From assembly GCF_024298765.1 (NCBI RefSeq), contig NZ_CP101211.1: a DNA stretch of 64,000 nucleotides, one strand, 5' to 3'. The stretch comes from Escherichia coli (lineage in GTDB: Bacteria > Pseudomonadota > Gammaproteobacteria > Enterobacterales > Enterobacteriaceae). A program made the position numbers. This document shows, piece after piece, positions 60,001 to 64,000 of the stretch (its first letter is position 1; every line of letters begins with the position of its first letter).

Positions 60001-63000
60001 CGATATCATATGACGAGACTAACAAGCAGCTGGATGTACTGGCGTCACTTGAAGGCGATGGTAACTGGTTCGACTCGGTCTCATTGAGGGAATTTTATCT
60101 TTCCGATAAGAACACCGGTACCCGGATGTCACCAACAGGCGTAATCAAATCTCGTATCTCAGGTAACTACACGATTGCTTATGATTTATCCCGTCAGTCT
60201 GAAGGAAAATACAACGTTGAGGTCAACATCAGGGACTTCTTCCAGAACCAGACCAATAAAACTTTCGGAGAAATTGCTCTGGATAACACTCCTCCGACAG
60301 TGGCCATAACATTCGACGGAAAGCCGGTAAAAGACGATACGGTAGTGTACGGCCTGGAGAACCTCAGGATCGCTCTGGCAGATAATCTGACAACCCCGAG
60401 GATAACCCGTCTTCAGCTCGTAGGTGGCCCCACAGCTGATAACGTTGAGCTTACGTGGTCACCGGCAGGCAAAGATACATACATGCCTGAGTATCCGAGG
60501 CTGTTCCCAAATTTCGAACCATCTGAAAATTATTCAATTAGCGTAACAGTTGCCGATAGTCAGTCGAATACCAAAACCTATACTCAGAAGTTCAGTTATC
60601 TACCGAATAACCTTGTGCAGTTACATAATCTACGCACATTGTCGGTCAGTTCACCTCTCAAAACGACAGATGGCGTACCACTTGCGTACCTGTCCACTAA
60701 CGTTCTGCGTAAGACAAATGGAGAAATTGCTAAAGGGGTCCAGAACGCAACGCTGACTGTGCGGAAGGATGCAGCCTTCGGTATTAAATTTAATGGGGCA
60801 CAGGCGGCTCCAGGCGAGTCAGTTGAGGTGCAAATAGATATGGGCCAGGGGGATAATCTTCTGTTACCCGTTTATCCTTCCGAAAATGGGAAAGTTGGCA
60901 CCTCAGAATTCATGATTCAGATCGACGAGTTGAAGTAACTACCCGGAGCCGACAGTAAAACTGACGGCTTCAATTTTACTGCCCTCCTCGACTCCGATCA
61001 GCCAGTACGTCTTCAGAGATTCGCAAGGAAGAACCGAAAGAAAAGTTACTTTAATCGTACGTTTCCAGCGATGCTTTCAAAAGACAATGCATACTCGTTG
61101 ATTACGACAATGGGAGTGAGTGTCGAACCCCTTGAGTAAGGATACTTGGTAAATATACAGCCCCGGGGATTCTCTTCCTTCAACCGGGGATGACAACGGG
61201 AGTGAGTCCGGCAACTCACACCTGTTGTCACTTCTCTGACATATCGTCATACGAGCTTACTCAAGCGCATCCACAAAGATGGGATCGTTTTGAATCTAAA
61301 CTGGTACTGGTTAGCCAGTCACTTGCATCTACTCCCCCGTCGATATTTAAGTGACAATTGTAGTGATCTGCAATACTGGTGTCTCAGAAACACTGTGTTG
61401 TGGTCAAGTTTTTTTGGACACGCCGATCAGATGGTAGGGTTATGCACAGGCGGGCAACTGGGCGGCAGGGCTGGCCAGCGTTTCGTACTGTGCGGGTGAT
61501 CGGTAGCCAAGTTTTGAATGCAATCGGGTACTGTTATAAAAGTTAACGATGTAGTCGGTGATGTCTTGTTTGGCTTCTGTATGGTTGGCATACCGAGTCT
61601 GCCAGACACGCTCCATTTTCAAATTCAGAAAGAACCGCTCCATCACGGCATTGTCCCAGCAATTACCCTTGCGGCTCATGCTGAGTACCAGACCATGGTT
61701 TTCAAGTAATTGCCGGTGTTCAGCACTGGCATATTGACTGCCCCGGTCCGAATGAACCAATAAACCCGGTGCCGGTTGGCGAACCGAAATAGCCATGCTC
61801 AACGCATCGCACACCAGCTGTGCAGGCATGGTCGGTGCCATGGACCAACCCACGATGCGACGTGAATACAGATCCAGCACAGCGGCCAGATATAGCCAAC
61901 CGCTGTCGGTCCGAATGTACGTCACATCGCACACCCAGGCCGTATTGGGTGCTTCAGGCTCAAACTGACGGTTGAGCACGTTCTCTGCCACCGGCAAATG
62001 GTGTTTGCTATCGGTGGTATGAGCGAACTTGCGACGCCAACAGGCCTTGAGTCCACAGGCTTTCATCAAGGTACGACAGCGATGACGTCCAACATCATGG
62101 CCCTGGGCACGCAGGGCTGCACTCAAACGACGACTGCCATAGGTGCGACCACTGGCAAGAAAAACCGCCTGAGCATGCACGCTGTCCTGGCAAATAGGTT
62201 TGGGTGTATTGACTCTGCGACGCGCTGCGTAGTAACCAGAGCGACTGATGTCCAACGCCTGACAGACCTGCTTGATCGGGGCCTGCTTCGCTAACTCAGT
62301 GACAACATCGTGGATCACTTTATTTCCCGTGCGAAGAAGGCCGAAGCTTTTTTTAATAATTCATTGTCTGATTTTAGTCGCCTGACTTCGGCTTCCAGTT
62401 CTCGAATACGTTGCTGCTCAGCCGTTAACGGTTTACCAATCCCCGGCCTGCCGGCTGACTCGTCATCCAGTTGGTGTACCCAGCGTCGGACCACACTTTC
62501 GGTCAGCTTCATTTCGCGGCAGACTTGGCTGACGCTGACGCCTTGCTCGCGCACCATGCGCGCCACCTGTAACTTGAACGCTGGATCAAAGGTTCGGCGA
62601 TTCTTGGTTGTGTCGGTTGTCTTGTCGGTCATCTCTTCATGTTCCTTGTCGGGGGGAAAACACCCGATCAAAGTGTCCATTTAAATTTGACCACAACACT
62701 GACGACGGTAGAGACTCAATACCCTAACCCCTGACAACAGAAGTGAGCTTAGAGGTGTTACGCTGCTGTCACCTAATGCTTGGGAATTGCCTGACTCACA
62801 ACCATTGTCATCCGGAGCTACTGATTAACGTTGAACCGCTGGACTTTAATGACAGTGGTAGTGATGGATAGGCTCATTTCCATTGTCGTCATTTTATCGG
62901 ACAAGCCTCTTCGTCCTACAGGTTTAAGCTGACAATGGTAGTGATTGGATGATCTCACTACTGTTGTCACTCAGTTCTTTGAGCGGACCCTTCCCTCGGT

Positions 63001-64000
63001 TGGTCGGCATTAACAACGGTAGTGACTCGATTGGCTCACTGCCATTGTCATCGTGTAAATGACGTACCTTATCAGCTCAGCTGAAAGCAATGACAACGGT
63101 AGTGACTCTAATTGCTCACTGCCATTGTCGTCGTGTCTATTGAGAGCCTTATCAGTGCACCTGAAAAGCAATGACAACGGTAGTGACTCTAATTGCTCAC
63201 TGCCATTGTCGTCGTGTCTATTGAGAGCCTTATCAGTGCACCTGAAAAGCAATGACAACGGTAGTGATTCTAATGGCTCACTACCGTTGTCACCGTGTGT
63301 ATTGAGAGGATGGTCCACTTAACTGGACGTATATGACAATGGTAGTGACTTTAATAGCTCACTACCATTGTCGGTGTGTGAATTGAGAGGATGAGCAGCT
63401 CAGCTGTACGTCCATGACAATGGTAATGACTTAATGAGCTCACTACCGTTGTCACCCTGTTAATTAAGAGGCTCATCTGCTCTTCTGGAAGGCTATGACA
63501 ACGGAAGTGACTTGCTGGGCTCACTGCCATTGTCGCCGTATGAATTGAGAGGATCATCCGCTCTTCTGGATGGCAATGACAACGGTAATGACTTAATAGG
63601 CTCACTACCATTGTCACCCTGTGAATTGAGAGGATGATCTGCTTAACCAGACGGCCATGACAACGGTAGTGACTTTCTGGGCTCAATACCGTTGTCACCC
63701 TGTGAGTTAAGAGGTTGACCCGCTCTACTGGACGGCCATGACAACGGTAGTCACTTTCTGGGCTCACTACCGTTGTCACCCTGTGAGTTAAGAGGTTGAC
63801 CCGCTCTACTGGACGGCCATGACAACGGTAGTCACTTTCTGGGCTCACTACCGTTGTCGCCATATAGAATGAGAGGAGCATCAGCTCAACTGAACGGCAA
63901 TGACTACAGTAATGAGCTGGATGAAGCATAACCATTGACATCTGGCCCAACCGGAAGCCGTATTCGCCAATCCAATCGAGATTCACAATGGCCGTGACTC

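Follow-up and report, generated by a model that had tools for sequence, protein, structure and literature searches.

In several well-known replicons, copy number and incompatibility depend on repeats that act through titration or handcuffing, as is the case for the downstream repeats of RepFIB plasmids (P307), the incA locus of P1, and the incC locus of F. The control iterons of these three systems are short (19 to 22 bp) direct repeats present in 5 to 9 copies. Two further precedents come from the RepE/RctB family, in which inverted iteron-like half-sites bind dimers, and from Vibrio cholerae chromosome 2, whose RctB-bound 39-mers are long sites of negative control, separate from the iterons of the origin. 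Here, we analyzed a 64,000-nucleotide (nt) stretch of Escherichia coli DNA, hereafter the window (NCBI RefSeq assembly GCF_024298765.1, contig NZ_CP101211.1), which carries near one end a tandem array of 81-bp units, each headed by an inverted repeat. This array is the already described long-iteron cluster of the RepHI2A replicon and not a new element. It very probably serves as the downstream iteron cluster of that replicon, presenting RepHI2 boxes for copy-number control and incompatibility.

The closest described repeats are those of R478 (NC_005211), the IncHI2 reference plasmid. PMC8490738 places twelve iterons of 80 to 81 bp about 500 bp from repHI2 and states that cloning suggested functional activity, while the review PMC4980987 mentions "long iterons" of up to even 76 bp in the same plasmid. 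Both sources treat the R478 repeats as an unusual "long iteron" variant and credit them to Page et al. 2001 and Gilmour et al. 2004. Several further papers on IncHI plasmids name repHI2A but give no account of the repeats. The repeats are also known from replicon typing, for which primers labelled "HI2 / IncHI2 iteron" are available with a listed amplicon of 644 bp (PMC6206278). Outside the IncHI2 group, the Acinetobacter megaplasmids of the pALWED1.1 group carry ten tandem putative iterons of 83 to 84 bp beside rep (PMC8490738). These resemble the RepHI2A repeats in unit length (about 80 bp), copy number (about 10), and proximity to rep, and the authors who described them made the comparison with R478 themselves, reporting no significant sequence similarity between the two (PMC8490738).

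Identity of the array with the R478 long iterons

The window consists of IncHI2 backbone, and many plasmids from Salmonella, E. coli, and Enterobacter match it at 100% identity; these are 210 to 450 kb long and typed as IncHI2A, MOBH, and MPF_F. Its regular long-iteron array, delimited with Tandem Repeats Finder and box mapping, spans positions 62850 to 63981 and contains 14 units of 80 or 81 bp (features of the array are given without strand). These units start at 62850, 62930, 63011, 63091, 63172, 63253, 63334, 63415, 63496, 63577, 63658, 63739, 63820, and 63901, the first and the last being degenerate. The repeat finder called an 81-bp period at 63013-63915, with 11.2 copies and 81% matches, and returned 11 in-register copies, 80 or 81 bp apart, with an inverted repeat inside each. 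This inverted repeat heads the unit, with arms of 15 nt (TGACAACGGTAGTGA / TCACTACCGTTGTCA) on either side of a 10-nt spacer. Along the 81 bp of a unit, the left box (TGACAAYGGTAGTGA) and the right box (TCACTRCCRTTGTCR) stand on the two sides of the spacer and are followed by a tail of 41 nt, and the 15-bp box TCACTACCRTTGTCA is found in two inverted copies per unit. When the whole window was searched for this 15-nt box with up to 2 mismatches, 31 matches were recovered, all within 61105-63859, against 0.19 expected by chance. Identity among paralogous units amounts to 0.88-0.90 in the boxes and to 0.65-0.74 in the spacer and tail.

These results redraw the outline given by the first-pass annotation, which was made from the sequence alone and described 18 to 20 units repeating with an exact 81-bp period from about 61100 to the window end, interrupted only by an IS3-family element. 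The period is real, although it measures either 80 or 81 bp and is kept only by the 14 units at 62850-63981; the higher figure corresponds to the number of left-arm boxes (19). The interruption was correctly recognized and is ISKpn18, at 61396-62698. The repeats do not stop at the window end either, since three more inverted box pairs lie beyond position 64000. Each unit does hold an inverted repeat around a loop, as had been described, but the arms are perfectly complementary in only 1 of the 14 units (63253). Between 1 and 4 arm mismatches are present in 12 other units (well-formed or first) and 6 in the degenerate last one. The reported identity of the units at 63091 and 63172 was also found, the remaining units being 66-80% identical to a reference unit.

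Comparison with R478 (locus L003 in our set) identified the array. Between the Ig-like (immunoglobulin-like) protein gene and repHI2, R478 and the window have one and the same map of boxes: the element agrees in position, in box sequence, and in its spacing of 80/81 bp. Left-arm positions that keep this spacing number 13 in R478, 11 of them in well-formed units and two in degenerate end units, and 14 in the window, where degenerate end units are likewise counted. Units u01, u02, u03, and u13 are identical between the two plasmids, and for seven more window units the R478 counterpart shows a few substitutions. The differences are that the window lacks units u19 and u20 of R478 and carries, in the distal degenerate part, ISKpn18, which is absent from R478. 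The claim that the unit was unlike known repeat families and had no known function is thus overturned by its match to the RepHI2A long iterons, an outcome that the first-pass annotation had itself named as refuting it.

The typing primers map to the array and its proximal flank. On R478 they lie at L003 19462-19483 (+), inside u19, and at 20084-20108 (-), giving a 647-bp span. The array was thus already known, because R478 carries it, the literature cites it, and a typing polymerase chain reaction (PCR) targets it. In the window lineage, the forward "HI2 iteron" primer matches exactly and the reverse primer has a best site with 1 mismatch, at 63761-63782. An exact site for the reverse primer was found only in R478-type arrays (u19), and four additional sites with 2 mismatches are present in the window lineage; amplicon size or efficiency could vary by lineage.

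Two other identities were considered and rejected. RefSeq records and plasmid-collection gene tables, the latter listing protein-coding genes only, show no annotated gene under the array. Open reading frames of 211, 102, and 87 amino acids (aa) cross it on both strands, none of which has an NCBIfam match. A repetitive protein-coding gene was dismissed on this lack of family support, as open frames are expected from a 27-codon period. An array of clustered regularly interspaced short palindromic repeats (CRISPR), already discounted in the first-pass annotation, was discarded on two grounds: the inter-hairpin segments share homology (pairwise identity of 0.65-0.74), and the annotation of the window and its flank lists no cas genes.

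A box shared with the repHI2 origin

The repHI2 gene lies at positions 10505-11593, minus strand, of plasmid pR18.0877_278k (locus L001; window coordinate = L001 coordinate + 53899), and the array lies 3' of the gene. Its stop codon falls at about window position 64404, approximately 400 bp past the window end, and the first-pass annotation missed the gene because it was just out of sight. The last 81-bp unit ends about 420 bp short of the stop codon, and the interval between position 64000 and the stop is occupied by the three further inverted box pairs, seen in L001. Upstream of repHI2, the origin iterons form two sets of five direct 21-bp repeats (L001 11813-11911 and 12236-12335), separated by an AT-rich stretch in which a DnaA-box-like sequence can be read. 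The core of these iterons, TCACTAC(C/T)(G/A)TTGTCA, is the same 15-nt box as that of both arms of the 81-bp units. The layout is that of an iteron replicon, in which rep lies between the origin and an auxiliary cluster made of the same sites. In having two sets of 21-bp origin iterons, RepHI2A resembles the RepFIB-type replicon of pMT1, and in placing extra initiator sites on the far side of rep from the origin, it resembles the P307, P1 incA, and F incC clusters. It differs from these clusters in its content, which amounts to about 40 boxes, mostly in inverted pairs, 12 to 14 of these pairs lying within an amplified 81-bp unit. The classical pattern of short (17 to 22 bp) direct repeats is thus replaced here by 81-bp units with an inverted box pair.

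One of the box pairs has a feature of its own. The last pair, at L001 10393-10430 (about window 64292-64329), lies some 75 bp after the repHI2 stop and scores as intrinsic-terminator-like on the rep strand; this pair may serve as the terminator of repHI2 as well.

Sharing a box with the repHI2 origin makes the initiator the likely binding protein. By tblastn, RepHI2 shares about 50% identity with RepFIB RepA and with initiators of the "RepB family" from thousands of plasmids, and it matches PHROG 775 with E = 6e-110. The label of this PHROG, "replication helicase," looks like a misnomer for an initiator. Sequence searches of Pfam, NCBIfam, and the PDB, run with the single sequence and with a 6-sequence profile, gave no significant match. 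The AlphaFold model, with a mean predicted local distance difference test (pLDDT) score of 64 and a core at 75-88, matches domains 2-3 of RctB (E = 7e-7) and the dimeric RepE-operator complex (PDB 2z9o; E = 3e-5). RctB and RepE have the tandem winged-helix initiator fold in common, and the tblastn, PHROG, and fold comparisons place RepHI2 among iteron-binding initiators with this fold, of the RepFIB/RepE type. Initiators of this kind carry two winged-helix domains, and their dimers bind DNA while the monomer is the replication-active form (PMC4980987). The likeness to RepE on its operator extends to the fold but not to the arrangement of sites: for RepE, one operator site sits in the rep promoter and shares only part of the iteron, whereas RepHI2A has whole inverted boxes in a large array downstream of the gene.

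The shared box also bears on whether the array might instead be a partition centromere, parS/parC-like and bound by a plasmid segregation adaptor, a role that the first-pass annotation had listed. Tandem arrays of dyad-symmetric sites are indeed typical of plasmid centromeres. However, the 9 kb to either side of the array contain no par genes, the neighbors being repHI2, Ig-like protein genes, and an insertion sequence (IS), and published backbone descriptions list the IncHI2 parAB genes apart from repHI2A, one of them putting parB2 in the tra2 region. With a repeated box that is that of the repHI2 origin iterons, and hence points to the initiator, we consider a centromere very unlikely.

The same direct-repeat iterons argue against a function exerted through hairpins. 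According to this explanation, also raised at first pass, the units would be transcribed and processed into a structured RNA or would extrude as single-stranded DNA or cruciform hairpins acting as a single-strand origin, promoter, or recombination site. The 15-nt inverted repeat in each unit invites it, as does the terminator-like score of the pair proximal to repHI2. Yet the arm sequence recurs in origin iterons that, as direct repeats, are incapable of forming hairpins, and perfect arms are the exception among the window units. For a 15-pair stem in an alignment of 20 distinct units from five lineages, 92.0% of stem cells were paired compared with 92.2% in shuffles, the covariation score fell below the shuffled mean, and the most variable pair (columns 7/34) was unpaired in 8 of the 20 units. 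The arms are alike because each matches one consensus, with no excess of pairing or covariation. A mini-stem in the tail, 63% paired, did no better than its shuffled control or a register slid by one column. Its changes that look compensatory by eye (CAGC/GCTG, TCCA/TGGA, TCTG/CAGA) were set aside as an artefact of two registers. A search of Rfam at a permissive E-value returned one chance match to mir-71 (E = 0.86), which reached 21 bits where the gathering score is 50. Promoter-like sites were no commoner than in shuffles, and in the combined promoter and terminator scan counts did not exceed shuffled levels, only the pair nearest repHI2 being terminator-like. With pairing at the level of shuffles and no Rfam family, we give almost no credence to a processed RNA or to any other hairpin function.

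Amplification of the box pair and a probable role in replication control

A related replicon separates the box pair from the unit that contains it. In a Citrobacter plasmid (L008), Rep is 86% identical to RepHI2, the box is the same, and the same two sets of five direct iterons lie upstream. Downstream of rep, about 1.5 kb contains many inverted box pairs with spacers of 1 to 11 nt, and in this region we found no 81-bp period, no homology to the tail, and no CYGTGTGAATTGAGAGG motif. Because L008 keeps the pairs without the 81-bp unit, and because CYGTGTGAATTGAGAGG is limited to the IncHI2 array, the inverted box pair appears to be the conserved functional element, and the 81-bp unit a lineage-specific amplification of one pair with its neighboring sequence. 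Tandem Repeats Finder was also run on pSPCV, pMT1, and one Pantoea plasmid, where it reported only the upstream 21-bp iterons, in pMT1.

The units are gained and lost among IncHI2 plasmids. In the five lineages compared (the window lineage, R478, L004, L006, and L005, which is pSH111_227), identical flanks enclose 14, 13, 12, 12, and 9 units. The two identical adjacent units at 63091-63252 reflect a recent whole-unit duplication, in which u04 is present twice in the window lineage; u04 occurs once in L004, L005, and L006, and the duplication is absent from R478 too. Unit u11 (63739-63819) is chimeric: its head is that of u12, which follows it, and its tail is that of u10, which precedes it. 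In L004 and L006, u10 is directly followed by u12, and the window lineage thus displays two lineage-specific unit gains relative to these two. The opposite event is seen in pSH111_227, where a fusion unit (L005 2909-2989) combines the u08 head with the u12 tail and marks a clean four-unit deletion. This plasmid has the smallest array seen, with 9 units, and shows that a substantially shorter array is tolerated. Duplicate, chimeric, and fusion units are the products that would be expected from unequal homologous recombination, and the 81-bp period and tail are best explained, on sequence comparison, by the recent amplification of one box-pair unit through this process. The ongoing expansion and contraction proposed at first pass is thus supported, both by the range of 9 to 14 units and by the chimeric junction units.

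The tail is the part of the unit that could speak for another role. Its CYGTGTGAATTGAGAGG segment has a pairwise identity of 0.74, compared with 0.67 in the spacer, and the motif occurs in 7 units against 0.27 expected. The array could then bind RepHI2 with a main role other than negative copy control, as a fork barrier or terminus, as a silencer or insulator, or as a scaffold for a second factor recruited through the tail, and its location between the 3' ends of repHI2 and of the convergent Ig-like protein gene would suit such functions. Against this, the related replicon retains only the box pairs and lacks CYGTGTGAATTGAGAGG, and within the window the motif is confined to the array. This restriction allows the conservation of the tail to be explained by the recent common descent of the units, and the tail is probably without a function of its own. 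The free gain and loss of units fits a sink acting by dose, although it discriminates weakly between roles. A main role outside copy control is therefore improbable in our view.

We thus favor a downstream iteron cluster that controls replication negatively. In this mechanism, RepHI2 would occupy the approximately 40 downstream boxes, and the array would lower the frequency of initiation by titrating RepHI2, by handcuffing the origin iterons on its own plasmid or on a sister plasmid, or by both. A low copy number would be set in this way, and the array would act as an incompatibility determinant. Since the boxes lie in inverted pairs, RepHI2 dimers may occupy them, as at the RepE operator. The observations behind this reading are the identity with R478, the box shared with the origin and limited to the replicon, the lack of covariation between arms, and the gain and loss of units; from them, we infer RepHI2 binding, negative control, and dimer occupancy. 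A handcuffing array or a protein-binding sink had been among the roles proposed by the first-pass annotation, and this is the mechanism toward which the evidence leans.

Several points weigh against this assignment. The functional assignment leans on statements cited at second hand and on comparison with P1 incA, F incC, and the RepFIB repeats, whose classical control iterons are short direct repeats; with inverted pairs, Rep could bind as a monomer or as a dimer. The RepHI2 model is of moderate quality (mean pLDDT of 64), and template modeling scores (TM-scores) to its matches range from 0.32 to 0.47. The somewhat better conservation of CYGTGTGAATTGAGAGG than of the spacer (0.74 versus 0.67) also leaves room for a second bound factor. 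A more specific version would make the array a sink for RepHI2 dimers, the replication-inactive form, in which the tail motif recruits a second factor and unit number tunes copy number and incompatibility. We regard this version as speculative and rather unlikely.

Surroundings of the replicon and implications

Outside the regular array, eight degenerate boxes are scattered over 61105-62810. By box mapping, those on the far side of ISKpn18 comprise a single degenerate RepHI2 box at 61105-61119 (-), an inverted pair formed by 61191-61205 (-) and 61216-61230 (+), and another single box at 61352-61366 (-). Between the insertion and the regular array, further degenerate boxes lie at 62700-62714 (-), 62732-62746 (-), and 62796-62810 (+). 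Spacing in this distal part is irregular, with left-arm boxes 86, 161, 42, 32, and 118 bp apart once the IS is taken out.

ISKpn18 is an IS3-family element of 1303 bp on the minus strand (61396-62698), whose orfA spans 62315-62680 and whose orfB spans 61440-62318. It is flanked by a 3-bp CTG target duplication (61393-61395 and 62699-62701) and inserted among the distal boxes, right beside the box TGACGACGGTAGAGA, which is intact; the regular array is unaffected. The element is absent from the R478, L004, L005, and L006 lineages and does not belong to the array. Further backbone insertions of this lineage, taken from the annotation of L009, are an IS150 beside a Hok-family toxin gene and an IS21 (istA/istB), at about 26700-28400 and 46500-48500 of the window.

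On this side, the replicon is bounded by a gene for an 806-aa Ig-like-domain protein (58518-60938, +). Together with a second large gene of this type (818 aa, L001 12701-15157), it brackets the RepHI2A replicon, the two genes converging. R478 shares this bracket and, some 5 kb upstream of the 806-aa gene, has one more gene of this type. A near-perfect isolated inverted pair of a box variant, TGACCATGGTAGTGA N6 TCACTACCATGGTCC, is found at L001 12562-12597, with some 240 bp separating it from the outer set of origin iterons, on their far side, and some 100 bp from the 3' end of the second Ig-like gene. The rest of the window holds the IncHI2 Tra1 region (mobI, mobH, traD, trhH) and many hypothetical genes, as well as a gene for a 794-aa PAPS-reductase-family protein and several DNA methyltransferase genes.

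Taken as a whole, the array carries little weight as a discovery; it is already on record as part of the backbone of a plasmid group of clinical importance and is targeted by routine IncHI2 typing PCR. The annotation is blank beneath it, and naive scans will keep flagging the region. Were the units indeed a sink for RepHI2 dimers, their range of 9 to 14 would tune the copy number of IncHI2 plasmids and the strength of their incompatibility. More generally, the pairing of inverted boxes, which a related replicon has kept as well, raises a testable question, namely, whether the initiator is sequestered as a dimer or as a monomer.

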